Sequence record: NC_070985.1
Origin: Escherichia phage O18-011
DNA length: 64,000 nt
Direction: 5' to 3' (one strand)
A model generated the notes under the pieces. That model was not told where the DNA came from. It made no database searches and saw only the letters and a list, made by a program, of their open reading frames with translations. Made by a program: the position numbers and the translations under genes. Positions 1,980 to 46,122 of this stretch are shown one piece after another. Each line of letters opens with the position of its first letter. Position 1 is the first letter of the stretch.

Positions 1980-2402
1980 ATGCCATTACCAGCTAGACAC
2001 CAAAACCGTTTCTTAGTTCTCAAGTGGGATGATATCGAAATGAATCTCACTGAACATGAACTGGATTTGTTCCATGAGCTTTTGTCAGAGATTCGCTCTG
2101 GTATTCCTGAACGTCAGTATGTAGTTATCAGCGATAAACACCATCAAGAGTTTGAAGAAGCTTGGGGTATGAAGTTAGCTTACATCCAGAGAGCTATCAG
2201 AGAAAGAGAAGAGGTTGCTAACCAAAGAGTTGTGGCTCATCTAGTACGAGAGCAACCTCGTGAAGCTAGGGCTAACCATGCACCACCTCCACCTACTCCT
2301 CGGATAGTTGTTAACGGGGCGGTTAGGGCTTACAGTTATGAAGCTACCGTGTTAGATGTGATAGAAGATAACCAAGCATTTACAGATTTACTTTACCAAT
2401 AA
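1980..2402 (+). CDS. hypothetical protein
   Basis: ORF track; starts 1 nt after upstream stop. Confidence 0.5.
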   Translation: MPLPARHQNRFLVLKWDDIEMNLTEHELDLFHELLSEIRSGIPERQYVVISDKHHQEFEEAWGMKLAYIQRAIREREEVANQRVVAHLVREQPREARANHAPPPPTPRIVVNGAVRAYSYEATVLDVIEDNQAFTDLLYQ

Positions 2403-2418
2403 TTTAAAGGAGCATAAA

Positions 2419-4221
2419 ATGAGCAACCCGGACGCTCTCCCATTTTTGACAGAGATGACTGTCGCTGATATAATCTCTAAGCAAGCAAAGCACGGAGTGA
2501 GTTTCAACCGAAGAAATGCTCGGTGGTATGTTCACCTCCTTAAAGAGATTATTGTTAATATTGACAAAGAACTGATTCCTCTCTTACCTAAGATGAGATT
2601 AGATGGCTCTACTTATATGAAGCCATTTAAGAAGTCTGGAGCTTTACAGAAGTGGCCTCAAACATATTGTGATAGGGTTGGACTTAAGAGAGAAGACATT
2701 GGTGGAGCATTCACCTGTGTAGAGTACGTAGACTTTGACCCATCGAAAGATGCCCGAGTTAAAGAAGCCCTTATGGATGAGGGTTTTCTTCCTCCAGAGT
2801 TTAACATATCAAAGAAACCTTGGAATACTTTTGAAATCAAGAAAGATATGCGAAAGTACGGAACATACCAAGCATGGTATTCAGCTTGGATGCGAGGTAA
2901 TGCTAAACAGAAGCAGACAGCCGAGATGGTTGACGCTGATATTAGAAAGTTCTTAGAGAAGCATTTTCGGTTTAAAACTAAGAACTACATGAAGGCTTAT
3001 GTATTTGGTTTAGGTTTAAATCCTAACCGACGTAGACCTATCACTTTTGATGAGATTAAGATAGCACTAGCTACCTCAAACAAGTGGCCTACAGCTCCTA
3101 CAAACCTCGAGGAGACTCTTGAAGAAGGGTTAGGGGGTGAGCTAGGGAGTGTCGGAAGTTTGCTTAAGAGACGCGTTGTAGCGGCTCACAGGCTAGGTCT
3201 TATCAGTGGACTCATAGCAAAGGAACGCGAAGATGGTAAACTTTCGGCAGAAGCTAACAGCTGCGCTACGCCGACTTTTCGATTCAAACATCGTATCGTG
3301 GTTAATATTCCCTCCCGTGGTTTGTTTGGTCATGAGTGTCGCAGTTTGTTTGAATCTGACTATAACTCAGATAGTGATCACTCTCGTCCTTTCATTATTA
3401 CTAACGTTGTTCCTGATGGTTGTTATATACGAAAAGGTACTAACGTAATTTACGAGAAAGGTAAGCCGGGGAAGAAAGACAAACCTGTAGGTGCTTACAA
3501 ATATTACATACCCGCTGGTAAAGAGGTATTCTTAGGGTATGATGGTTCTGGATTAGAATTGCGTATGCTCGCACACTACCTCATTAAAGAGTGTAGGGAT
3601 ATGCTTGCTGAAGCAATTGAAGAGAACAATCCAGCTAAGAAAGCTCTGGCAGAACGTGGTTTAGCTTCTGCTATTATGTATCGTGATATTCTCCTTGAAG
3701 GTGATATCCACTCCCACAACCAGAAACTTGCTGGTCTTCCTACTCGTGACAACGCTAAGACGTTAAACAACATGCGAGCACGTTTCTTGGCAGAGAACCC
3801 ATGTATTGCAATCCTCATTGATCGTATGACAGAGAAAGCTGCTCAAGGATACTTGATTGGTGTTGATGGTCGTAAGATTACAATGAGACGAGATTCCACT
3901 GGTAAGGTTATGGTTCATAAAGCACTTAACACTCTCCTGCAATGTGCTGGTGCTGTTGTTATGAAATATGCTATGATGTTCCTTAACAAGTGGATTGAGA
4001 AGGATGGGGTTCGTTGTGCTAAGGTAATTGATATGCATAAACTTCATTGTGCATGTAAAAGTTGGATGGATGAGGGCCAGTTCTCAGTTAATCGTAACGA
4101 TGTACAGAAACTCAAAGAGCACACCGAGCTTTGTGTTAAGAAGGCTGGTGAGTATTTGAACATGGAATGTCCTCTGGCATCTGATTGTCAGATTGGACTT
4201 AACTGGATGCATACACACTAA
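2419..4221 (+). CDS. family-A (T7 gp5-like) DNA polymerase, polymerase domain only
   Basis: Strong SD AAAGGAG; motif A GYDGSGLELRMLAHY; PTRDNAKT and GVDGRK...ALNTLLQCAGA and C-terminal NWMHTH align to T7 DNA polymerase as I recall it; no 3'-5' exonuclease motifs seen. Confidence 0.75.
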   Translation: MSNPDALPFLTEMTVADIISKQAKHGVSFNRRNARWYVHLLKEIIVNIDKELIPLLPKMRLDGSTYMKPFKKSGALQKWPQTYCDRVGLKREDIGGAFTCVEYVDFDPSKDARVKEALMDEGFLPPEFNISKKPWNTFEIKKDMRKYGTYQAWYSAWMRGNAKQKQTAEMVDADIRKFLEKHFRFKTKNYMKAYVFGLGLNPNRRRPITFDEIKIALATSNKWPTAPTNLEETLEEGLGGELGSVGSLLKRRVVAAHRLGLISGLIAKEREDGKLSAEANSCATPTFRFKHRIVVNIPSRGLFGHECRSLFESDYNSDSDHSRPFIITNVVPDGCYIRKGTNVIYEKGKPGKKDKPVGAYKYYIPAGKEVFLGYDGSGLELRMLAHYLIKECRDMLAEAIEENNPAKKALAERGLASAIMYRDILLEGDIHSHNQKLAGLPTRDNAKTLNNMRARFLAENPCIAILIDRMTEKAAQGYLIGVDGRKITMRRDSTGKVMVHKALNTLLQCAGAVVMKYAMMFLNKWIEKDGVRCAKVIDMHKLHCACKSWMDEGQFSVNRNDVQKLKEHTELCVKKAGEYLNMECPLASDCQIGLNWMHTH

Positions 4222-10849: not shown

Positions 10850-12391
10850 TTAGTAGCTCTGATTCCATCTGCTTACGTTTGCCTCATATAAAGAAGCACT
10901 TCCGTAGCTAACATCATGCTTAGAGCGACCACGATGTGTAACAGAGCACGCTGAATAGCGCATTGCATCCATTAAGTCATCATGTTCTTTAATAATCTTA
11001 CCAACCTTACGGTGATATCTAGCTTTCTCTTCGAATAGCTTAGCGTTAGCGGCTGTGTTAAAGACTTTAAAGCGTCCACTCATCATTCTTTCTCGGATAT
11101 CTGTGATTCCCGGTTCTACAAAGAAGTTCTTTTTACCATCCATTCCAATTTTGTTGTAGAAGGTCTCACTCTGTACGTTAACTCCTGCATTCTTATAGAA
11201 TTGAGCAACAGATGAACCACTACCTTTCTCAGTATTGTCCGCATCATGCGGTAGGATGACAGGAATCCACTGACCACGACCATTAATAGCTGGAGCATGA
11301 TACACTGGAGTAAAGCCACCTTCTTTATATGAGTCGTAAACATAGATAGTATCCGTGTTTGCATCGTAAGCTGTCCAAACAGCAGCAGTTGGGTGATCGA
11401 TACCAATATCAATTGCACAGACACGTTTCCACGTATCAGGAATTTCGAATGGTTCACATTTAATTGTGTCATCCGATACATCATAAATCAAACCACTTCC
11501 TAACAATGGCATACCTTTTGAACGCATCTCTAACTGCCACGCTGGAATACCTTCAGTCATATCTTTTATATCTTGGTCAGTGATGTGTCCACCTAGGTCT
11601 GCATGAGCATCCCACCAAGAAGCATTCTGGAAATATAGAGAACCTGTGCTCTCATCCCCTTCACCTTTCATAAATTTATCTACCAGTTCAGTTAAACCGT
11701 TCTCTGGTGTAGCTGTAATTGTAACTAGACCTTTAGTTGTGAGTGTACGTGTGACGCACTGTGCGAATATAGCCATAGACTCGTATGGATCTTCTTCGTC
11801 TAACCAAATGTAGTCAACTGTTGCACCCATCAATGTGTGTTCACCCTGTTGGGTTGAACGGAATTCTAATGTACTTAAACCGTCAAACTCTCCTCTTTCA
11901 TTTTGATGTTTGATTTGTACGATTTGAAGTTTGTTACCATCTCGTTCTATCGTATCAATGACGATAGCATCACGAGGAATGACACCTGTCCCTAATAAAT
12001 TTGTATCCTTTCCGATAGGTGTACCAAACAATTCCTTTTGCAATACTTTCCTTGTGGAATCCCCTGTAATACCAACTGCCCATGCTAAGATAGGTCTTTT
12101 AAATTTGTATCCTGTCCACCAAGTTGGGTAGCGACCTGTGACATGACAAGCAAACTCGTATGCCTCGCTATAAGATTTACCAACACGGTTCGCTGCACAC
12201 AAGAATCTAAAGCGATGCTTCAATCCTGCTGCATAAAATTTCTTTTGGAAGTCATACGCCTTGAAAGACAAAATCTTATTATACTTCCTCCATTGGTCAC
12301 GCTCTTTCAACATATTCAACAGTGCTTTCTTTTCCTCTACACTAAGATTGTTACCAGTTAGAGCTTCATAAATTTGTTTATCTAATGACAT
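10850..12391 (-). CDS. terminase large subunit
   Basis: 513 aa; Walker A-like AANRVGKS, Walker B-like YIWLDEED, C-terminal nuclease-like region; end of virion gene block. Confidence 0.75.
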   Translation of the reverse strand: MSLDKQIYEALTGNNLSVEEKKALLNMLKERDQWRKYNKILSFKAYDFQKKFYAAGLKHRFRFLCAANRVGKSYSEAYEFACHVTGRYPTWWTGYKFKRPILAWAVGITGDSTRKVLQKELFGTPIGKDTNLLGTGVIPRDAIVIDTIERDGNKLQIVQIKHQNERGEFDGLSTLEFRSTQQGEHTLMGATVDYIWLDEEDPYESMAIFAQCVTRTLTTKGLVTITATPENGLTELVDKFMKGEGDESTGSLYFQNASWWDAHADLGGHITDQDIKDMTEGIPAWQLEMRSKGMPLLGSGLIYDVSDDTIKCEPFEIPDTWKRVCAIDIGIDHPTAAVWTAYDANTDTIYVYDSYKEGGFTPVYHAPAINGRGQWIPVILPHDADNTEKGSGSSVAQFYKNAGVNVQSETFYNKIGMDGKKNFFVEPGITDIRERMMSGRFKVFNTAANAKLFEEKARYHRKVGKIIKEHDDLMDAMRYSACSVTHRGRSKHDVSYGSASLYEANVSRWNQSY

Positions 12392-30999: not shown

Positions 31000-33321
31000 C
31001 TATGATAATTCAATAATAAGTACGCACCCACCAGCACCGTTACCTCCCGGCTGCTGAGTAACACCAGTGGAACACGCGGTACCACCACCACCACTACCAA
31101 AACCAGAACCATCCACTCCGGGAACCGCGTTGGCTGAGCGTCCACCGCCACCTAGAGAGCTACTCGCACCATGACCGGCTGACGTGGTGGTAGCATTAAA
31201 TACGGCAGCGGCTGTACCAAAGCTGGGTCCAGTGCGAAATAACGCAGCCTGAGTATAGTCATCAGACTGGCTTGTAGGGCCAATGTTGGAAATGCTGGAG
31301 GAAGTAAGACGATTACCCCCAGCCCCGCCAACTACCGAGCAGATGGAACCGAGGGAAGTATCCCCTCCATTACCACCGGGCTGACCCGCTACCCCTAGTC
31401 CACCAGAACCCACAAGGCAACTGTAGGAGGCCGCTAAGGTAGGCAGATATAATAAAGCGGCACTACCAGAGTTACCCCCGCTACCAGCGCTGGCGTTACT
31501 GGCAGGTGGAGTTGTTGAACCACCACCTGCCCCACCACCAGCTTGCAGAAAAACAAACGCAGACTTTGCTGTAGCAGAGGGTGTCCATGTACCAGAAGCT
31601 ATCAGACGCTTAACATCTACTACACGACCAAATATGTTTAATGCAGTAAATAGTTCCGCTAAAGATGTAACACCAGTTCCACCACTAGCAACAGCCAATG
31701 GAGTGCTCAGTGTCTGTACACCGGACCAAGTATTGTCTGCATTAAGGAGCGGTACGGCATCTCCTGATACCCCAGTGTCTTTTAGTGCTGCAGACCCTAG
31801 ACCGAAGTTAGAACGAGCACCATCAGCATCTTTAGCTCCAGTACCTCCTTGAGAGATGGATAATGGTGTTGTGAGTCCAGATAAAGATGTGATGTCAGAA
31901 TTCGCACCAGAAGAGGCAGCGCCTAAGATAGATCTGGAGAGGTGTACGTTCCCTGTAATCTCATCAGGTGCTTGGTTATTTACCGTGACAACATAAGGTT
32001 TCTGGGCTTGTACAGACCCTTTATACTGAGTATCCTTATCAGAATCTGGTGCTCTTATTGCCTCCCCTCCAGTCCAATCTGGGAGTCGAATGTTAATGAA
32101 GTTAGTAGAATCTGCATCAGTAACTCCATCTGCCAATTTACCCCAAGAGAAGTATTGTCTAGCACCAGCCTGCCATTCTGTTTCAGAGACCACAGGAAGC
32201 TGACCACTGATGAGAGATGGGCCTAAATCAAGAGCAGACTCCTTTGATACCAAACGACCATCAGCAGGAAGAACTCCTGGATAGGAGATATTCTTAGTTG
32301 GGTCATAAGGGAACATCACCATCTCACCAAGATATAGAGAAGGGTTTCCTGTTGGAATGGTAATGTCAATGTTACCACTAGAGTCTGGAGAACGAGAGTT
32401 AACGGTAAGGATTCTACCTTCAGTTTTAACAGGAGTTAGTGTTTTGTTAGCAGCAACAGTATAGAATTCATACTTAGTAGCTTCCCAAACTAAGACTTTC
32501 TCTCCAACTTGACGATATTGAGCATCAGCATCAGCTTCTGCTTTTGATTGATATGTCTTGGTAGTTTTGTCAAACTTATCATCAATCTCTTGACGACTAT
32601 ACTGAGCAACGTTCAGAACATTCCCTAAATCAACTGTATCCTTGTTGATTGTTAAGGCAACTTCTCCATCAAGAACTGGACCGCCGTTAACAGAGATAGA
32701 ACGAACAGATGGAATTAAATTAGCAATATTCTCTAGAGTGGTTTTGTGGACGGTATTGTCATCTTTGTCAACATAGAAACCTAAATCTTCTAACTCTGGA
32801 ACACCGGTAGGTGCTGTGTCCAAATCCTTAACAGTACCATCCTTTCCGGGATCACCTTCTGGAATACCTAAAGAGATTACACCAGTGGTCGGATTAAAAG
32901 AACCAGTAGCCGGAGTTCCCGGAGGAAGTGTAGTTACATCAACGGACATTCCTAACAGAATATCAAGCTGATTCTGAACTTCAATAAGTTTCTGATTAAT
33001 GATAGCAACAGCATTGTTAGCATCAGAGACCGCTGCGTTAGTTTGAGCAATTAGAGTCATCAAACGAGCATCTTGATCTATAAAATCCTTCTTAAGATCT
33101 TCAATATCCTGCTTCATTAGAATACCCTGTTGGTATAGGCGTTCTACTTCAGCGACCAGATCATCGATTGTACCAAACTTAGACTCAGCCAGTAATGCCC
33201 AATATTTAGCATCAGATGCATATTCTGCTGCTTGCTTGTAAGCTCCTATAGAGCCTTCAGTAGCACCAAACTGCCCAACGTTATTCACTGCATCCGGTGC
33301 TTGGTTATTATAAACGATCAT
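31000..33321 (-). CDS. tail fibre protein
   Basis: 773 aa; coiled-coil N-part; C-terminal Gly-rich repeats (GGGAGGGSTT...GSGGNSG...GGAGGN). Confidence 0.6.
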   Translation of the reverse strand: MIVYNNQAPDAVNNVGQFGATEGSIGAYKQAAEYASDAKYWALLAESKFGTIDDLVAEVERLYQQGILMKQDIEDLKKDFIDQDARLMTLIAQTNAAVSDANNAVAIINQKLIEVQNQLDILLGMSVDVTTLPPGTPATGSFNPTTGVISLGIPEGDPGKDGTVKDLDTAPTGVPELEDLGFYVDKDDNTVHKTTLENIANLIPSVRSISVNGGPVLDGEVALTINKDTVDLGNVLNVAQYSRQEIDDKFDKTTKTYQSKAEADADAQYRQVGEKVLVWEATKYEFYTVAANKTLTPVKTEGRILTVNSRSPDSSGNIDITIPTGNPSLYLGEMVMFPYDPTKNISYPGVLPADGRLVSKESALDLGPSLISGQLPVVSETEWQAGARQYFSWGKLADGVTDADSTNFINIRLPDWTGGEAIRAPDSDKDTQYKGSVQAQKPYVVTVNNQAPDEITGNVHLSRSILGAASSGANSDITSLSGLTTPLSISQGGTGAKDADGARSNFGLGSAALKDTGVSGDAVPLLNADNTWSGVQTLSTPLAVASGGTGVTSLAELFTALNIFGRVVDVKRLIASGTWTPSATAKSAFVFLQAGGGAGGGSTTPPASNASAGSGGNSGSAALLYLPTLAASYSCLVGSGGLGVAGQPGGNGGDTSLGSICSVVGGAGGNRLTSSSISNIGPTSQSDDYTQAALFRTGPSFGTAAAVFNATTTSAGHGASSSLGGGGRSANAVPGVDGSGFGSGGGGTACSTGVTQQPGGNGAGGCVLIIELS

Positions 33322-39430: not shown

Positions 39431-39848
39431 TACTACTTCCTCCAGTTTAAGATAGGAAGGACGCCCGTTTAAGCAGCTCTCCTAAATTTAATGAGAATGA
39501 ACTGTAGCGCCTAAACACTCCCTTCATTGTTTCCTTTCGGATCTAGCAGCATCGGCGATTTTCTGCTGTCTATCAAATTTCCAATTGTTCAGGAACAGAA
39601 ATGCTCCTACTGATGAACATCGGATGGTTTCTCTGTTATAGAAAAGGGAAAGTCCCTTCGTCAAAGAACCTCCCCTCTTCACTTACAAGGGTACACTGCA
39701 AAAGAACATCGTGGCAATAAAACTATAACAACCCTTAGATTGCTAATCAGATGATCTTCGACAGCTCCCTGTTTCCTTTAATTAACTCTTGAATAAATGA
39801 AATCTCCTCTATCACTTCTAAGGTTTGTTAGTTTAACGAGAGGATTCC

Positions 39849-41365: not shown

Positions 41366-41412
41366 ACTTTTGTCCTCTGAGTAAAAATATAAAGGGCTAG
41401 GCATATTTACCC

Positions 41413-41518
41413 CGTAAAGGCCACGTCATCTTTGATGACTACCCTCATACCAACAACCCGTGATCGCTGATGTAAAGGGGACTTCATGTTAAGGCACTGT
41501 CATAAAGGCCATGTCACA
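41413..41518. repeat. three copies of a ~16-mer (TAAAGGCCACGTCAT-like)
   Basis: gTAAAGGCCACGTCAt at 41413, gTAAAGGGGACTTCAt at 41471, aTAAAGGCCATGTCAc at 41503; upstream of the - strand late block. Confidence 0.5.
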
Positions 41519-42010
41519 TTAAGTCCTGTCCACCCACGTACTGAATCTCAACTTACCACATTCCCTACACCTCCATGTTGATAGGTAGAGACCGTGTATT
41601 CTTTCATCCCCGTAAGCTTTACGAAGAAGATAGTAATTGTGCTTACACTTCATCCGTCTAAATACTTTAATCAGATTCATTCTCTACCTCTCTTCTAATA
41701 CTTATTAATTTTATAACTGTTCTAGCAGCATCCATTCTTTGCCAATCAGATAGGGATGTATCATTCATTCTGTCTGAGTGTTCAACTATAAATTTATTCA
41801 ATTCATCAATAACTTTCTGAGTCATATTCAACCTTATATATAAGAGTTTAAAATACAGATTTATAAAAAATAAAGATGTATATATCTGTTTAAAATTCTG
41901 ATTTGACCGAGTGGGGCTAGGCGCTCTGCGGCGAATTGTTAAAAAGGGGGAGTCCTCATTTAAAAAAGGGGTATTGGCAATGCCTTTACATCCCTATCAA
42001 CGTTTCAGCG

Positions 42011-42457
42011 TTTCCCCGTGCTTACTCCCCGTTATTCTTTCCCCGTATATGTCATCTATTACATTACCTACCCGTTAAATTAGTACCCCTTTACTGAATG
42101 GATGAAAGGCTAGCACTGATAGCAAACTAGTTAAGGCTTGATTATAACCATGACAATAATACCGTATTGTTACCATTCAGCTCCCCATAGTTTGAATGTA
42201 AATAGTTTCAATGGTAATGATTATGAGTGCAATAATGATGTATGTATTAATTAAGTGGATGATTGTGTTTCTTTTATTACTTTCTTTTTCAGCGTGCATG
42301 AGCGTAGCGAATGGTCTTTTCTTTTATGAGTTTACATTAATAGTTAACTAATTATTTAAGTGGTATATTATTACCGCACTATCTGGCATGTTTCCCCGTG
42401 GTCTGTTCTGCGGTTGTTGTATGCCCCGTCCTATATAGTAGAAATAGTTTACCCGTG
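42011..42457. repeat. dispersed TTTCCCCGTG-like repeats in non-coding region
   Basis: TTTCCCCGTG at 42011 and 42391, TTTCCCCGTA at 42038, TTTACCCGTG at 42448, plus shorter CCCCGT copies. Confidence 0.5.
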
Positions 42458-42525
42458 GTCGCTTGTCTTCTTTGTTAAGTAGTAGTAAATTGAAGCCTAT
42501 TGATTGAGTGATTGGAGTGATAAAA

Positions 42526-42699
42526 ATGATTATCCTAGTAATGATGGCAATGGCTGTAGTCTTTCCTTTACTTGTTCTAATCGTTTGTGAAGTAGTTGAG
42601 TCGTTCACGGATAGCAAGTTAAGCCCAAGAAACAAACCGAGTAAGTTTACTGGCGCTAAATTTAGTAGCAAGAAAGTTAGAAAGATGGTTGCAATGTAA
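42526..42699 (+). CDS. small membrane protein (57 aa)
   Basis: ATG 42526 after GGAGTGA; hydrophobic N-part, basic C-tail; shares 15-mer GTGATAAAAATGATT at its start with 43529 ORF. Confidence 0.35.
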   Translation: MIILVMMAMAVVFPLLVLIVCEVVESFTDSKLSPRNKPSKFTGAKFSSKKVRKMVAM

Positions 42700-42752
42700 G
42701 AAAGCGTGTCCTATTATATCCCTATCTATTACATATCAATGAGGCTTCACAA

Positions 42753-43244
42753 ATGACTAAACCGATGCAGATGATTAATCTGGCAAGTTATGCGCTAGTC
42801 GCCGCGATCGGTGTTAGTGCGCTGGTCACATCTCTTTCTGATAAGGCTATCGCTGGCCCTACTTCTGCAACTAATGCCGCTGATGTTTTCGCTAGTTCCA
42901 TCAATAAAGGTTGGATGATTTGCAACGGTGCGGATAGTGATGGAAGTGCTATTGTGTTAAAAGTGAAATTTAGTAACGTTACCAGTGAAGGCGTTCTCTT
43001 TCAATCTAAGACGTTGGATAATCAGCCTAACAGTGATCTAGTTCTCAAGCGTACTGATAATGATTCTGATATGGTGACGTATGGCACTGTAAAACGTTAC
43101 GAAGACGTTAAAGCTGTAACCAATCTAGTGAGTTATGGCCCGGTTAAAAAGTCGATGATCGCCACCACGGTTTACAATAATGCTGATAATGCTGTTTATA
43201 CCGTTTACATTAATTTAGCCAACTGCATCAAGGCCAGCAAATAA
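42753..43244 (+). CDS. secreted/periplasmic protein, function unknown
   Basis: Signal-peptide-like N-terminus MINLASYALVAAIGVSALVTSLSDKAIA; G/C-richer codons than neighbours. Confidence 0.5.
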   Translation: MTKPMQMINLASYALVAAIGVSALVTSLSDKAIAGPTSATNAADVFASSINKGWMICNGADSDGSAIVLKVKFSNVTSEGVLFQSKTLDNQPNSDLVLKRTDNDSDMVTYGTVKRYEDVKAVTNLVSYGPVKKSMIATTVYNNADNAVYTVYINLANCIKASK

Positions 43245-43271
43245 GTAACCAATTTTCAGGAGTAACAAAAA

Positions 43272-43523
43272 ATGAGTAACAAAGTGATCAAATTATCCAG
43301 CGGTGTTTCTTGTTTTGTTTGTGATACTTTTATCGCGTTCGGCTTAAAAGAAGGTGACGTGATACTTCCTACAGTTGCCTTTTGTTCCATGAGTTTTAGC
43401 GAGGCCAAAAGATGGCTCCAATTGGTGCGCATTGATATTAACCGCGATGACTTTCGTTCAATTTATGTTGACGGTGATTTGTCACTTGCTGGTCTTCTGG
43501 ATTGTGATTTGCCAAAATGGTGA
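43272..43523 (+). CDS. hypothetical protein
   Basis: ORF track; SD AGGAG upstream. Confidence 0.5.
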   Translation: MSNKVIKLSSGVSCFVCDTFIAFGLKEGDVILPTVAFCSMSFSEAKRWLQLVRIDINRDDFRSIYVDGDLSLAGLLDCDLPKW

Positions 43524-43528
43524 TAAAA

Positions 43529-43615
43529 ATGATTCATGATTATTTTTTGCGTTGTTTGTTCGTTGTTACAGTGGCGTTATTCGTCGCTGATATGCTTTAT
43601 TCTTATATCATCTGA
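43529..43615 (+). CDS. small hydrophobic peptide (28 aa)
   Basis: ATG 43529 in the same 15-mer context as 42526; single hydrophobic helix. Confidence 0.25.
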   Translation: MIHDYFLRCLFVVTVALFVADMLYSYII

Positions 43616-43645
43616 CTAGAAGCGTAATGATTTAAAACCTTCCTG

Positions 43646-43675
43646 AAAGCCTCGCCATGAGGCTTTTTTCTTTTC
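43646..43675 (+). terminator. rho-independent terminator
   Basis: AAGCCTC-gccat-GAGGCTT followed by TTTTCTTTTC. Confidence 0.6.
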
Positions 43676-43831
43676 TAAGGTGATTGTATGCCTTACTCCC
43701 TTTTAGCTCGCTGTAGTGCGTTTTAGGCCGCCTATTGTTGCATTATAAGCCGTTTCCTATGGTGTAACGCGTTCGCCCGCTCTTTTATCTTCCCCATAGT
43801 GAAAAAGTTTAAAATATTTTGCTTTACCCTA

Positions 43832-43859
43832 TTGCACCTCATGAAAGTTAGCGTATACT
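43832..43859 (+). promoter_or_regulatory. candidate early promoter P0 (sigma70-like)
   Basis: TTGCAC-16 nt-TATACT with A/T-rich upstream tract; weaker match than P1 and P3. Confidence 0.35.
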
Positions 43860-43907
43860 GATTTTCATCGGGTACGATGTAAAACATACAAGGGCAAGAA
43901 ATTGCCC

Positions 43908-43920
43908 CGCTCTTTAAAAA
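43908..43920 (+). promoter_or_regulatory. boxA-like element 1
   Basis: CGCTCTTTAAAAA; compare lambda nut/rrn boxA consensus CGCTCTT(T)A. Confidence 0.5.
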
Positions 43921-43957
43921 TCAGGCTAGAAAGTGAAAAAAATACTTGAAAAAGTAT

Positions 43958-43985
43958 TTGACAACTGAAAAGCCTAACCTATAAT
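43958..43985 (+). promoter_or_regulatory. early promoter P1 (sigma70 consensus)
   Basis: TTGACA-16 nt-TATAAT, A-rich UP-like tract upstream. Confidence 0.6.
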
Positions 43986-44020
43986 GAGTGTACAAGGTCA
44001 GCGATGACCTAAAAAAATCC

Positions 44021-44033
44021 CGCTCTTTAAAAA
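44021..44033 (+). promoter_or_regulatory. boxA-like element 2
   Basis: CGCTCTTTAAAAA, preceded by hairpin AGGTCA-gcga-TGACCT (43995-44010). Confidence 0.5.
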
Positions 44034-44106
44034 CTTATCGTCTTGCCCTTTCGCATAGAATCAAGCGAGATAAGGGAAGAGAATAAAAGAAGACGATAAA
44101 AAGAGT

Positions 44107-44134
44107 TTGACAAGCTAACACGACGTGTTAAGCT
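44107..44134 (+). promoter_or_regulatory. candidate early promoter P2
   Basis: Perfect -35 TTGACA with A-rich upstream tract; -10 region weak (TAAGCT). Confidence 0.35.
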
Positions 44135-44148
44135 GTAAATGCAGTAAC

Positions 44149-44161
44149 CGCTCTTTAACAA
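44149..44161 (+). promoter_or_regulatory. boxA-like element 3
   Basis: CGCTCTTTAACAA, identical to the E. coli rrn boxA core as I recall it. Confidence 0.55.
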
Positions 44162-44263
44162 TATGAATCATGAGTTAAGCCTTATCGCTTAATCTTCAAT
44201 CAAATAAAGCTGGTTGATATATCCTCCCAATAGCGGGAACGATGAAAAAGATTAAAAAAGTGA

Positions 44264-44292
44264 TTGACGGCGGAAGCAAAATGATTCATAAT
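44264..44292 (+). promoter_or_regulatory. early promoter P3 (sigma70-like)
   Basis: TTGACG-17 nt-CATAAT; downstream ATAATGAGYGTAC shared with P1. Confidence 0.55.
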
Positions 44293-44385
44293 GAGCGTAC
44301 TCACTAAGCAGATCACCGCTTCAGTGAAAAAGCGAAACAACGGCTAACAGTTGCGTAGTGTGAGAAAGCACACTGACAGATTTAC

Positions 44386-44398
44386 CGCTCTTTAATAA
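44386..44398 (+). promoter_or_regulatory. boxA-like element 4
   Basis: CGCTCTTTAATAA, preceded by hairpin GTGTG-agaaag-CACAC. Confidence 0.5.
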
Positions 44399-45222
44399 TT
44401 TAAACATTCCTCTATATCGGTTAAATATGTTTGATGATAATAACCATCGGAAAACATACCAGATAAAACGGCGTAAAACTCCCTAAAACATCAGGGTAAA
44501 CAGTTTTTACAATCCCTTAACTGGAAAAGTCGCCACTGATAAGCGGATTCATTGAGTACACGCAACGGTTTAAGCTAATCGCCCACGGTTAAGGGTAGCG
44601 GCGGCCATCGCTAACAAGGTGCTACAGTGAAAGAAGCTAATCAGGGCAGACAAGTCCGACAAATTAACGCCCAATTGAGGGCGGTGGGGAATGGTTAAAA
44701 GGTGGCAAATTGCTATTTAACAATAAGGTTTAGTGTGAACGTTTACGATGCGAACGGCTTGAGATTCGTCTTACGATGAAAGCACATAGTCGGTTTATGT
44801 AGTAAACTTGCCGAAAGATATAAAACGCCGGAATATTAGGCGGTTAGTGACTTTTTCGCAATAGTATCCCGTAGTGGGCGATGACTAGCGACAAAGAGCT
44901 AATACAAAAGGATAGGCGGGAGCGAAAGCAAAGTAGACGATATTGCCAACGGTTACGATAAAAGTAACTAATTAGAGTTGGACGCACTGCCTTATTGTGA
45001 TGATTGATCATCGCTACGCAATCCGGCTTTATTTATAGCGGAAAATTAAAGCGTACCAGATGAAACATCACGGATAAGGGGGCGGCAAGGTTAACTCCTG
45101 ATAAGACCGCCCCACTTACCTATAAGCGTTTACAGTGAGCGTTTATAGTTAAGTCAATAGTGACTTAAAAGGCTCATAGCGAGCGGGGGCAATAGTGCCC
45201 TTACAATTGAAAGGTGAATATC

Positions 45223-46122
45223 ATGGCTAAAATTTTCAATCTGGTAAAAGAATCTGGCTTTAACGCACTTGCTAACAACATTCGTAGTAATAACGCGGCG
45301 ATTAAACAAGACGTTTCTAATTTTCTGTTAGGGCACTTGCAGCACTTCCGCAGTAACGGTAAAAAGCTGGACGTATTGCAGTCGGCAGTTGATTTTCTGT
45401 TAACCGAACGTTTCCGCGATATGGACGTGATCGCCACTGCAATTACTTTCTTAACTCCCATCAAGTTTAACACCGATGCGGCAAACGGTCGTAAAAAGTG
45501 GATTAATCTGGAAGGTGAAGCGAAAGCGAAAGAAGACGCGAAAGAAGCGCAAATTAAGGCCAAAATGGAACAAAACCGCGCTCGCTGGTCAAACGCTTTC
45601 GAAAACTTTGCTTTAGGTCGTGAAATTGAAGTCGATAATCCTAACTTTTACAAGGGTTGCAATGACAACGTGGCGGCACATCTGCAAATCCCGGCGAAAA
45701 ACAAGGAAGATTTTAACCAAGATATTTACGCTTTAGTTGAACGCTTGAATGCAATCCGTATTGAAGCCAAATTGCTGGCTGATGAGCGCAACGGCGCTAC
45801 CAGTGACAATACCATCGCTTTGAGTGAAGAAGTGGGCAAGGTTAAGAAGTCCTTTGATTCACTCATCAAGAAAGTCACGGCTTCAACGGTAGCGATCTCT
45901 GACGATTATCTGATGAACGCATCAAGCAAGGAGCTGGAATCACTCGATTCATACGCTGATGAAATGGAAAAGACTATTGCAGCTATGCAGGAGAAGTTAG
46001 AAAGTCTGCGCGGTCGTATCTCTTCAACGGTTGCTACCCGTACCGAACAAGCGGCGAAAGAAGAAGAGGAAGAAGTATTGCGCAAGGCAGCTGAAATTAT
46101 GGCGGCACGTCAGGCAGCATAA
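45223..46122 (+). CDS. first early protein, function unknown
   Basis: ATG 45223 after AAAGGTG; Lys/Glu-rich helical protein; followed by strong terminator. Confidence 0.6.
   Translation: MAKIFNLVKESGFNALANNIRSNNAAIKQDVSNFLLGHLQHFRSNGKKLDVLQSAVDFLLTERFRDMDVIATAITFLTPIKFNTDAANGRKKWINLEGEAKAKEDAKEAQIKAKMEQNRARWSNAFENFALGREIEVDNPNFYKGCNDNVAAHLQIPAKNKEDFNQDIYALVERLNAIRIEAKLLADERNGATSDNTIALSEEVGKVKKSFDSLIKKVTASTVAISDDYLMNASSKELESLDSYADEMEKTIAAMQEKLESLRGRISSTVATRTEQAAKEEEEEVLRKAAEIMAARQAA

Follow-up and report, generated by a model that had tools for sequence, protein, structure and literature searches.

The window analysed here, a 64,000-nucleotide stretch of Escherichia phage O18-011 (sequence record NC_070985.1), carries a row of four open reading frames (ORFs) on the plus strand at positions 42526-43615. 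They encode a hydrophobic peptide of 57 amino acids (pepA, 42526-42699), a 163-residue protein that corresponds to the core of phiEco32 gp128 (gp128C, 42753-43244), an 83-residue homologue of gp127 (43272-43523) and a hydrophobic peptide of 28 residues (pepB, 43529-43615). By its nucleotide and protein similarities the window is the genome of a Kuravirus, i.e. a phiEco32-like podovirus of the Gordonclarkvirinae, and the four genes are almost certainly its right-terminal early operon, homologous to gp128-gp125 of phiEco32 and CDS125-121 of SU10. An earlier note, made from the letters of the sequence, had described the region as a small accessory island that was possibly acquired horizontally. 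Our own reading is that of a trimmed right-end early operon for envelope proteins of a Kuravirus, and we hold it as a whole with slightly better than even confidence.

The region and its surroundings share 86-90% DNA identity with the Escherichia phages 172-1, NJ01 and MN05 and with about 90 further records; those for which the taxonomy was retrieved are all Gordonclarkvirinae (Kuravirus and sister genera). Mapping of the whole phiEco32 genome onto the window showed that the two are colinear in reverse orientation, with the 163-residue ORF corresponding to phiEco32 75947-76432. The phiEco32 ends map close together (phiEco32 1-233 to window 42111-41879, and 77042-77533 to 42429-41940). Phages of this type (phiEco32, SU10) possess a 193-bp direct terminal repeat (PMC4281155), the equivalent of which is placed at ca. 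41919-42111 because the phiEco32 ends map there; its limits are approximate, it has no strand and it includes CCCCGT repeats. On this mapping, the divergent junction that had been taken for a boundary between modules is the point at which circular permutation of the sequence has joined the physical ends of the genome. The operon begins about 400 bp inward of the repeat equivalent and shows the features of a right-end operon: it adjoins the terminal repeat, is oriented inward, has a conserved gene order and is closed by a terminator. In SU10, the unit CDS125-121 was classed as early; a single sigma-70 promoter precedes it and a terminator follows it (PMC4281155). The homologous region was also collected from 23 other genomes or contigs of the genera Kuravirus, Nieuwekanaalvirus and Suseptimavirus, and eleven reference proteins were mapped onto these loci.

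The four ORFs lie where the earlier note had placed them, and we regard all of them as real genes because their pN/pS ratios (pooled Nei-Gojobori estimates) are between 0.22 and 0.32 and each has a Shine-Dalgarno-like site. The ratios are 0.22 for gp128C (15 sequences), 0.22 for gp127 (6 sequences), 0.25 for pepA (8 sequences) and 0.32 for pepB (21 sequences), as compared to 0.075 for the neighbouring gp124 (6 sequences). The putative ribosome-binding sites are GGAG for pepA, GAGG for the 163-residue protein, AGGAG for the 83-residue protein and GGTGA for the 28-residue peptide, the last one overlapping the gp127 stop codon. Both short peptides are strongly hydrophobic, as had been noticed before, and so is the N-terminus of the 163-residue protein.

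The pepA product has 57 residues when read from the ATG, which is preceded at 9 nt by GGAG, or 63 residues when read from a GTG at 42508. It matches phrog_7482 (E 3.4e-15, over residues 1-46 of 46 profile positions) and combines a very hydrophobic N-terminal helix (KD(19) 3.17) with a basic C-terminal tail, which points to a single-pass membrane peptide. At the operon's far end, pepB encodes 28 residues, or 32 if translation starts at the ATG at 43517. Its core FWRCLFVVTVALFVADMLYSYIL is nearly invariant while third codon positions vary (pS 0.275 vs pN 0.087), and tblastn found it in 23/23 related loci, including those of Nieuwekanaalvirus and Suseptimavirus. It is predicted to be a transmembrane peptide; it is annotated in Bas94 (a 29-aa CDS) and left unannotated in most other records. 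The gp127 homologue of 83 residues matches phrog_14176 at 1.3e-43, has no transmembrane segment, gives no Pfam family above threshold and shows a conserved RDDFRSIYxDGxLSLAxLL motif in an alignment of 13 homologues. A zinc ribbon was considered for this protein and rejected, as Cys17 is not conserved. In PHROGs and GenBank the 83-residue protein carries the labels 'polymerase' and 'DNA polymerase B region', for which there is no profile support; the same applies to 'terminase' for the 121-residue, predicted exported gp125 of relatives and to 'cathepsin L-like cysteine proteinase' for a 55-residue ORF in the spacer. Such misleading names of small ORFs have propagated (records L001, L002, L012, L028-L030 and L033). 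Another name that looks doubtful is 'ABC transporter', given to an ORF of about 190-210 residues in the divergently transcribed cluster that lies upstream of the terminal repeat.

The identical 15-mer context seen in the earlier note is real: the window has exactly two copies of GTGATAAAAATGATT (42517 and 43520), and both times the ATG-ATT is in the same register. The exact pair therefore stands; its interpretation as a duplicated start context that marks the boundaries of a cassette does not. Markov simulation gave such a pair within 1.1 kb in about 10% of the windows (0.15 pairs per window). The shared string consists of a Shine-Dalgarno-like GGTGAT/GAGTGAT, AAAA and ATG ATT, and in the second copy it runs over the stop codon of gp127. 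The copy before pepA is GTGATAGAAATGATT in relatives, a match of 14/15, and in phiEco32, SU10 and KBNP1711, where another gene precedes the 28-residue peptide, the context 5' of it differs. Past Met-Ile there is no sequence similarity between pepA and pepB. A duplication or cassette boundary was rejected in view of the 14/15 match in relatives, the Shine-Dalgarno-plus-start make-up and the unrelated peptides; judged by its composition, the pair is a similar translation-initiation context.

The gp128C protein matches phrog_21410 at 6.8e-89 and phrog_36409 (C-terminal part) at 1.2e-93, a full-length profile match, and all invariant columns are present in the protein of the window: the NLASY...G.S helix, LKRxDxD, VTNLVSYG, ATTxY and two cysteines. 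A word-indexed search returned 89 clusters of proteins. All of them are phage-like, none has a Pfam domain, and they have either a similar length or the long form of ca. 286 residues; all source names are Kuravirus-like, as are most of the long contigs (ca. 75-80 kb). An exhaustive profile search of 1.84 billion representatives gave 5 clusters below 1e-10. Other profile matches were to low-complexity regions of giant repetitive proteins, which were rejected as homologues. Because both searches yielded only family members, the gp128C family is, as far as sequence comparison can tell, confined to this phage subfamily. Fold and domain searches were uninformative: Pfam returned sub-threshold noise for the ORFs of the window (EF-hand_10, YoaL) and likewise for phiEco32 gp125 and gp126 (YobH, Rpb1_3), a PDB sequence profile search produced chance matches (E>0.2), Foldseek found nothing below 1e-3 in the PDB, and a fold search of BFVD gave family members and weak matches to uncharacterised barrels. 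PADLOC did not match any operon product, so that none could be placed in a known anti-phage defence or superinfection-exclusion family.

Structurally, gp128C is predicted to consist of a helix (residues ca. 8-28), a linker and an eight-stranded up-and-down β-barrel (ca. 53-160). In the AF2 model, in which the helix is followed by eight strands, the 10-residue blocks of residues 41-160 have pLDDT values of 82-92. All of 47 sequences have Cys57 and Cys158, which lie in the antiparallel strands 1 (55-61) and 8 (147-160), where the modelled strand register would pair them (57+158 = 55+160). From this pairing of invariant residues we infer a barrel-closing disulfide and hence a periplasmic barrel.

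The earlier note had called the protein signal-peptide-bearing. Its N-terminus is hydrophobic, but whether this is a signal peptide is uncertain, an anchor being the likelier reading. Signal peptides have a short positive n-region, an h-region of about 7-15 residues and an AxA site, and are usually poorly conserved. gp128C does have an n-region with Lys3 and an AxA-type site (AIA|G), but its h-region runs to about 21 residues, and no other part of the protein is as well conserved: residues 8-28 share 81% identity between genera as compared to 41-43% for the barrel (entropy 0.50 vs 0.81 bits). Furthermore, in phiEco32, SU10, EP335 and EK010 the helix is preceded in frame by a conserved domain of 125 residues and the stretch KKNKKQPIKP, which fits the positive-inside rule. 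Because of the conservation and length of the helix and the upstream domain with its lysine stretch in the orthologues, a signal-anchor, which would leave the N-terminus cytoplasmic and put the barrel into the periplasm, is more likely than a cleavable signal peptide. There is no lipobox (L-x-x-C), as no cysteine precedes residue 57 and the segment ends with LVTSLSDKAIAGP.

The character of this helix bears on the proposal that gp128C controls lysis timing, as an RI-like antiholin or sensor with a weakly hydrophobic helix of the signal-anchor-release type and a domain in the periplasm for holin binding or for sensing superinfection. Of 19 residues of the helix, 8-10 are Gly, Ala, Ser or Thr. 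T4 RI, too, is an early-made periplasmic protein with a signal-anchor-release domain. However, the 125-residue cytoplasmic domain in front of the helix of the long forms is incompatible with release from the membrane, the lysis genes are far off in the late cluster, and gp128C shows no sequence similarity to RI. We consider this role very unlikely.

The canonical gp128 promoter of phiEco32, SU10, EP335, EK010 and SU7 (TTGACA-N16-TATAGT) is absent from the window and from the other pepA-type genomes. Candidates on the plus strand are an extended -10 element (TGgTATATT, 42361-42369) with a poor -35 element, a sigma-70 promoter TTGTCT-17-TAAATT (42463-42491; 8/12), which would give a leader of about 26 nt to pepA, and an internal promoter TTGCAA-17-TATTAT (42689-42717; 9/12 in a consensus scan) located at the 3' end of pepA and upstream of gp128C. 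The block AATTATTTAAGTGGTATATTA around the extended -10 is invariant in seven pepA-type genomes and also occurs in phiEco32 and SU10, TTGTCT-17-TAAATT is kept in the pepA-type genomes with TAGTAAATT invariant across genera, and the sequence of the internal candidate is conserved in pepA-type relatives. The operon is closed by an intrinsic terminator on the plus strand (43645-43675), which folds as a 10-bp stem followed by a T-run and is homologous to the terminators annotated after SU10 CDS121 and in SU7. Downstream of it lies a non-coding spacer of roughly 1.5 kb with three strong, near-consensus sigma-70 early promoters (43958-43985, ca. 44107 and 44264-44292). An Rfam scan of 41400-45400 returned nothing.

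Over the 23 loci and the window the gene order is kept as [N-domain, pepA or nothing]-gp128C-(gp127)-(SU10_123)-(gp126)-pepB-gp125-terminator. The gp128 core occurs in 23/23 related loci and in 92 phage records overall, spread over the three genera, and pepB likewise in all 23 loci; five loci were also found in IMG/VR and ten in a metagenome scan. The presence of gp126, gp127 and gp125 varies among the loci. In relatives gp125 (87 records) is a protein of 121 residues with a hydrophobic N-terminus and two cysteines, and is predicted to be exported; the full form of the operon would thus encode three or four envelope proteins. In MN05, VTCCBPA_211 and ECBP2 gp125 is reduced to a stump of 30 residues, and in the window both gp125 (wholly) and gp126 are deleted. 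By this comparison the operon of the window is the most reduced form of the unit.

In the alignment of the upstream regions there is a sharp breakpoint after the conserved TAGTAAATT: past it, phiEco32-type genomes have TTGACA-N16-TATAGT and the N-domain, while the window continues directly with pepA, which in this lineage replaces the canonical promoter together with the 125-residue domain. Obviously, the 5' end of the operon is a swap site that holds pepA, the 125-residue domain or nothing. The domain (phrog_15368) corresponds to the first 125 residues of phiEco32 gp128 (L003 4943-5317), is absent from the window, and is found in 42 records at >=60% identity. It also exists as a stand-alone gene in Klebsiella siphoviruses (ca. 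48 kb) and phAPEC8-like myoviruses (ca. 148 kb) with 45-57% identity, so it is by these matches a widely shared phage domain which in about 42 Gordonclarkvirinae records is fused to a membrane anchor. For pepA there are 14 records from the Gordonclarkvirinae, and Rtp-like siphoviruses have weakly similar genes. A second kind of mobility is seen in EcoN5, IMEP8 and Bas94, in which the homologues of gp120 and gp117 flank the module gp128C-gp127-(gp126)-pepB-gp125, several kb into the early region, and the genome end of Bas94 retains only pepA and a second gp127 copy. The module from gp128C to gp125 is therefore one that moves as a whole within the subfamily.

These exchanges are what speaks for a recent, horizontal acquisition of the region as a moron-like cassette inserted between two modules: pepA is patchy, its relatives in Rtp-like siphoviruses are 44-48% identical, its segment has taken the place of the promoter and N-domain segment at a sharp breakpoint, the replaced domain has its own existence in siphoviruses and myoviruses, and the gp128C-gp125 module is found elsewhere in three genomes. 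For the genes that make up the core, the same comparison points the other way. Patchiness among close relatives, as expected of an island, is seen for pepA only and not for gp128C or pepB, in view of the 92 records and 23/23 loci in three genera, and no gp128C homologue outside the subfamily could have served as donor; the search for relatives of the 163-residue protein thus lent no support to a foreign source. Nor does the region show the deviant base composition or codon usage of an island or moron. The 163-residue gene had been described as having G/C-richer codons, yet its GC content is 0.421 as compared to a window mean of 0.422, which is the 48th percentile of 492-bp windows, and its GC3 of 0.402 compares with 0.381 +/- 0.073 in long ORFs. 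The region in its entirety is slightly AT-rich (GC 0.394, 11th percentile), and in codon-usage fit to the genome (long ORFs) all four ORFs lie within 1 sd, so that windowed GC and codon usage do not deviate from the genome. Finally, the site is the genome terminus rather than an insertion between modules, and the 15-mer is a ribosome-binding context. The acquired-island interpretation is largely refuted for the core genes, and for the region as a whole we regard it as quite improbable; what is left of the cassette proposed earlier is pepA, by its distribution the only exchangeable accessory part of this operon. The sequences are better described as a conserved core with an often exchanged 5' end and middle than as a foreign island.

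Location at the cell envelope, also proposed in the earlier note, is backed by the sequence of three of the products: pepA has a transmembrane helix and a basic tail, gp128C a helix followed by a barrel with two cysteines, and pepB a transmembrane segment. A location of the operon products at the inner membrane or in the periplasm is accordingly likely. In the scenario that we favour, host sigma-70 RNA polymerase would probably transcribe the operon right after DNA entry, and transcription would end at the conserved intrinsic terminator just ahead of the spacer with its three strong early promoters. The four products would be the membrane peptide pepA, the gp128 core with an inner-membrane helix and a periplasmic, disulfide-stapled barrel, the small soluble gp127 and the membrane peptide pepB. 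Most likely they would gather at the inner membrane and in the periplasm within the first minutes of infection and change the envelope to the benefit of the phage. The likeliest effect would be superinfection exclusion or a shielding of the infected cell, in which the ejection apparatus or DNA passage of later phages is blocked, in analogy to T4 Imm and Sp. In virulent coliphages, most of the envelope proteins that are made early are superinfection-exclusion factors, such as T4 Imm and Sp and T5 Llp, and for this reason superinfection exclusion is the leading hypothesis for the specific function; we put it forward tentatively, as a possibility that rests on analogy. A related and still somewhat more doubtful idea is that gp128C, pepB and, where present, gp125 form a so far unrecognised, subfamily-specific system of the inner membrane and periplasm, made first and from the leading end of the genome, which controls DNA passage across the envelope and either excludes secondary Kuraviruses or gates entry of the phage's own genome. 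The proposed system lacks homology to any of the proteins Imm, Sp, Llp, Cor and Sie.

Several points weigh against the operon acting as an early superinfection-exclusion unit. The pepA-type variant has no canonical gp128 promoter and possesses only weaker candidates, early expression is assigned by homology with what the literature reports for phiEco32 and SU10, and entry of the right end first is an assumption. The AIA|G site could allow cleavage and thus release of gp128C as a soluble periplasmic protein. The searches with Pfam, PADLOC, PDB sequences and Foldseek gave nothing specific. Moreover, superinfection-exclusion genes tend to have a patchy distribution, so that near-universal conservation in three genera would be out of the ordinary for them and would fit a more central role.

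Such a role could be genome entry, either by T7-like transcription-driven internalisation, in which the operon would enter first and its transcription and products would be required to pull in the remaining genome, or by proteins which, similar to the first-step-transfer proteins of T5, open or stabilise a membrane channel. The operon adjoins the terminal repeat, is transcribed inward and has its terminator just before the promoter spacer of ca. 1.5 kb; the subfamily-wide conservation of gp128C and pepB suits a core function, and the distant relative 7-11 also begins early transcription at the extreme right end. A terminal position is not required, however, as the gp128C module lies several kb inward in EcoN5, IMEP8 and Bas94. 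In addition, several isolates are viable with a truncated gp125 or without it, the presence of gp126 and gp127 varies, the canonical leading promoter is missing from the window, and the end that enters first is assumed. A function in genome entry is for these reasons judged unlikely.

We give equally little weight to the proposal that the membrane proteins serve takeover of the host envelope by inhibiting cell division, the assembly of peptidoglycan or lipopolysaccharide, or a membrane-located defence effector, instead of keeping out other phages. Early genes of the phiEco32 type are generally considered host-takeover factors, all but one of the four products are assigned to the membrane or periplasm by prediction, and the Gordonclarkvirinae are notably resistant to the defence systems tested. 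On the other hand, no product is similar to a known inhibitor or anti-defence protein, PADLOC and Pfam gave no matches, and the barrel motifs LKRxDxD, VTNLVSYG and ATTxY suggest a conserved ligand without any hint as to which. We retain superinfection exclusion as the leading, tentative explanation for what the early envelope-protein operon does.

The operon was already catalogued, though uncharacterised, and is of modest interest: it is an ordinary conserved hypothetical operon rather than a foreign island. Its significance derives from the phages that carry it. The Gordonclarkvirinae are common, broad-host-range, defence-resistant coliphages and candidates for therapy, and their early biology is almost unstudied. 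The first operon at their genome end comprises a conserved set of envelope proteins, one unannotated peptide of 28 residues and a 5' swap site, and offers concrete targets for studying superinfection exclusion or the control of genome entry in this subfamily.

Two other features of the window, the repeats in the spacer and a relocated terminase gene, may perhaps be more interesting than the operon itself. The long untranslated spacer before the gp124 homologue (window 43907-44725) contains four exact copies of CGCTCTTTAANAA on the transcribed plus strand and one near copy, interleaved with the three strong early promoters. The boxA-like motif CGCTCTTTAA(A/C/T)AA is found at 43909, 44022, 44150 and 44387, with the near copy at 44712, and the sequence at 44148-44160 agrees with the rrn boxA of E. 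coli, UGCUCUUUAACAA, in 12/13 positions. Of the fetched loci, 24 contain the spacer, and in each of these, over three genera, the motif recurs two to five times on the transcribed strand. The cluster suggests that the early transcript is subject to antitermination by Nus factors (NusB/S10) or is protected against Rho. No link of boxA with phiEco32 was found in the literature searched, a search that did not include the primary paper on phiEco32 transcription.

The CDS for the terminase large subunit (phiEco32 2240-3781, exactly from start to stop) is located at 10850-12391 on the minus strand of the window, antisense inside the gp29 homologue and between the equivalents of phiEco32 positions 31034 and 31035. 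At the canonical site between gp6 and the portal gene the ribosome-binding site and terminator are kept, and 187 bp without a database match lie directly upstream of the old terminase ribosome-binding site (39451-39637). The junction is shared by 0/99 related records, and the move has the look of a rearrangement that was engineered, is otherwise artificial or stems from misassembly, and not of natural variation.

Near the genome end, GTTT(C/A)CCCGTGG and CCCCGT motifs are repeated at 42010-42460 (e.g. 42010-42023, 42390-42403 and 42447-42460), within and just inside the terminal-repeat equivalent. They are kept in all aligned relatives and could be sites for the terminase or end recognition, or other DNA-binding sites. 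A very hydrophobic ORF of 46 residues (42211-42351, plus strand) begins in an invariant, non-coding-looking block beside the terminal repeat. Its frame is open in relatives, but lengths, indels and ends differ; the T-rich sequence has probably produced this ORF incidentally, although it could be a third small membrane peptide.

Among known systems, the operon is closest to its counterparts in phiEco32 (gp128-gp125) and SU10 (CDS125-121), with amino acid identities of 85-87% for the gp128 core, 50-56% for gp127 and 85-89% for pepB. Orientation, position beside the terminal repeat and the homologous terminator are the same, and the assignment as early is made by homology. Unlike these units, the operon of the window lacks TTGACA-N16-TATAGT, the gp128 N-domain, SU10_123, gp126 and the entire gp125, and has pepA instead. 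The nearest architectures are those of MN05 and VTCCBPA_211, which kept the gp125 stump of 30 residues. pepA itself resembles the Rtp71-like peptides of phrog_7482 (44-48% identity to the peptides of Rtp, ZL19 and BECP10); in Rtp the gene is also near the genome end, and the basic tail of pepA is variable or frameshifted among Kuraviruses.

More distant likenesses concern fold and function. As compared to calycin-type barrels (lipocalins, streptavidin-like proteins, de novo barrels and Cap15), gp128C reached generic-fold scores, none of which was significant by Foldseek. It has neither a Pfam lipocalin match nor the C-terminal helix of lipocalins, and whereas the Cap15 barrel is cytoplasmic and binds nucleotides, that of gp128C is predicted to be periplasmic with a disulfide. 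T5 Llp and the lambdoid Cor proteins are early-made, small, disulfide-containing envelope proteins that prevent re-infection. They are outer-membrane lipoproteins, unlike gp128C, in which there is no lipobox cysteine and the first cysteine is residue 57 in strand 1; Kuraviruses use O-antigen and lipopolysaccharide and not a protein receptor. T4 Sp is helical whereas gp128C is a predicted β-barrel, and no sequence or fold relationship connects the two. Nevertheless, T4 Imm and Sp, being small, early-expressed inner-membrane or periplasmic proteins of a virulent coliphage, offer the best functional analogy for the operon described here.

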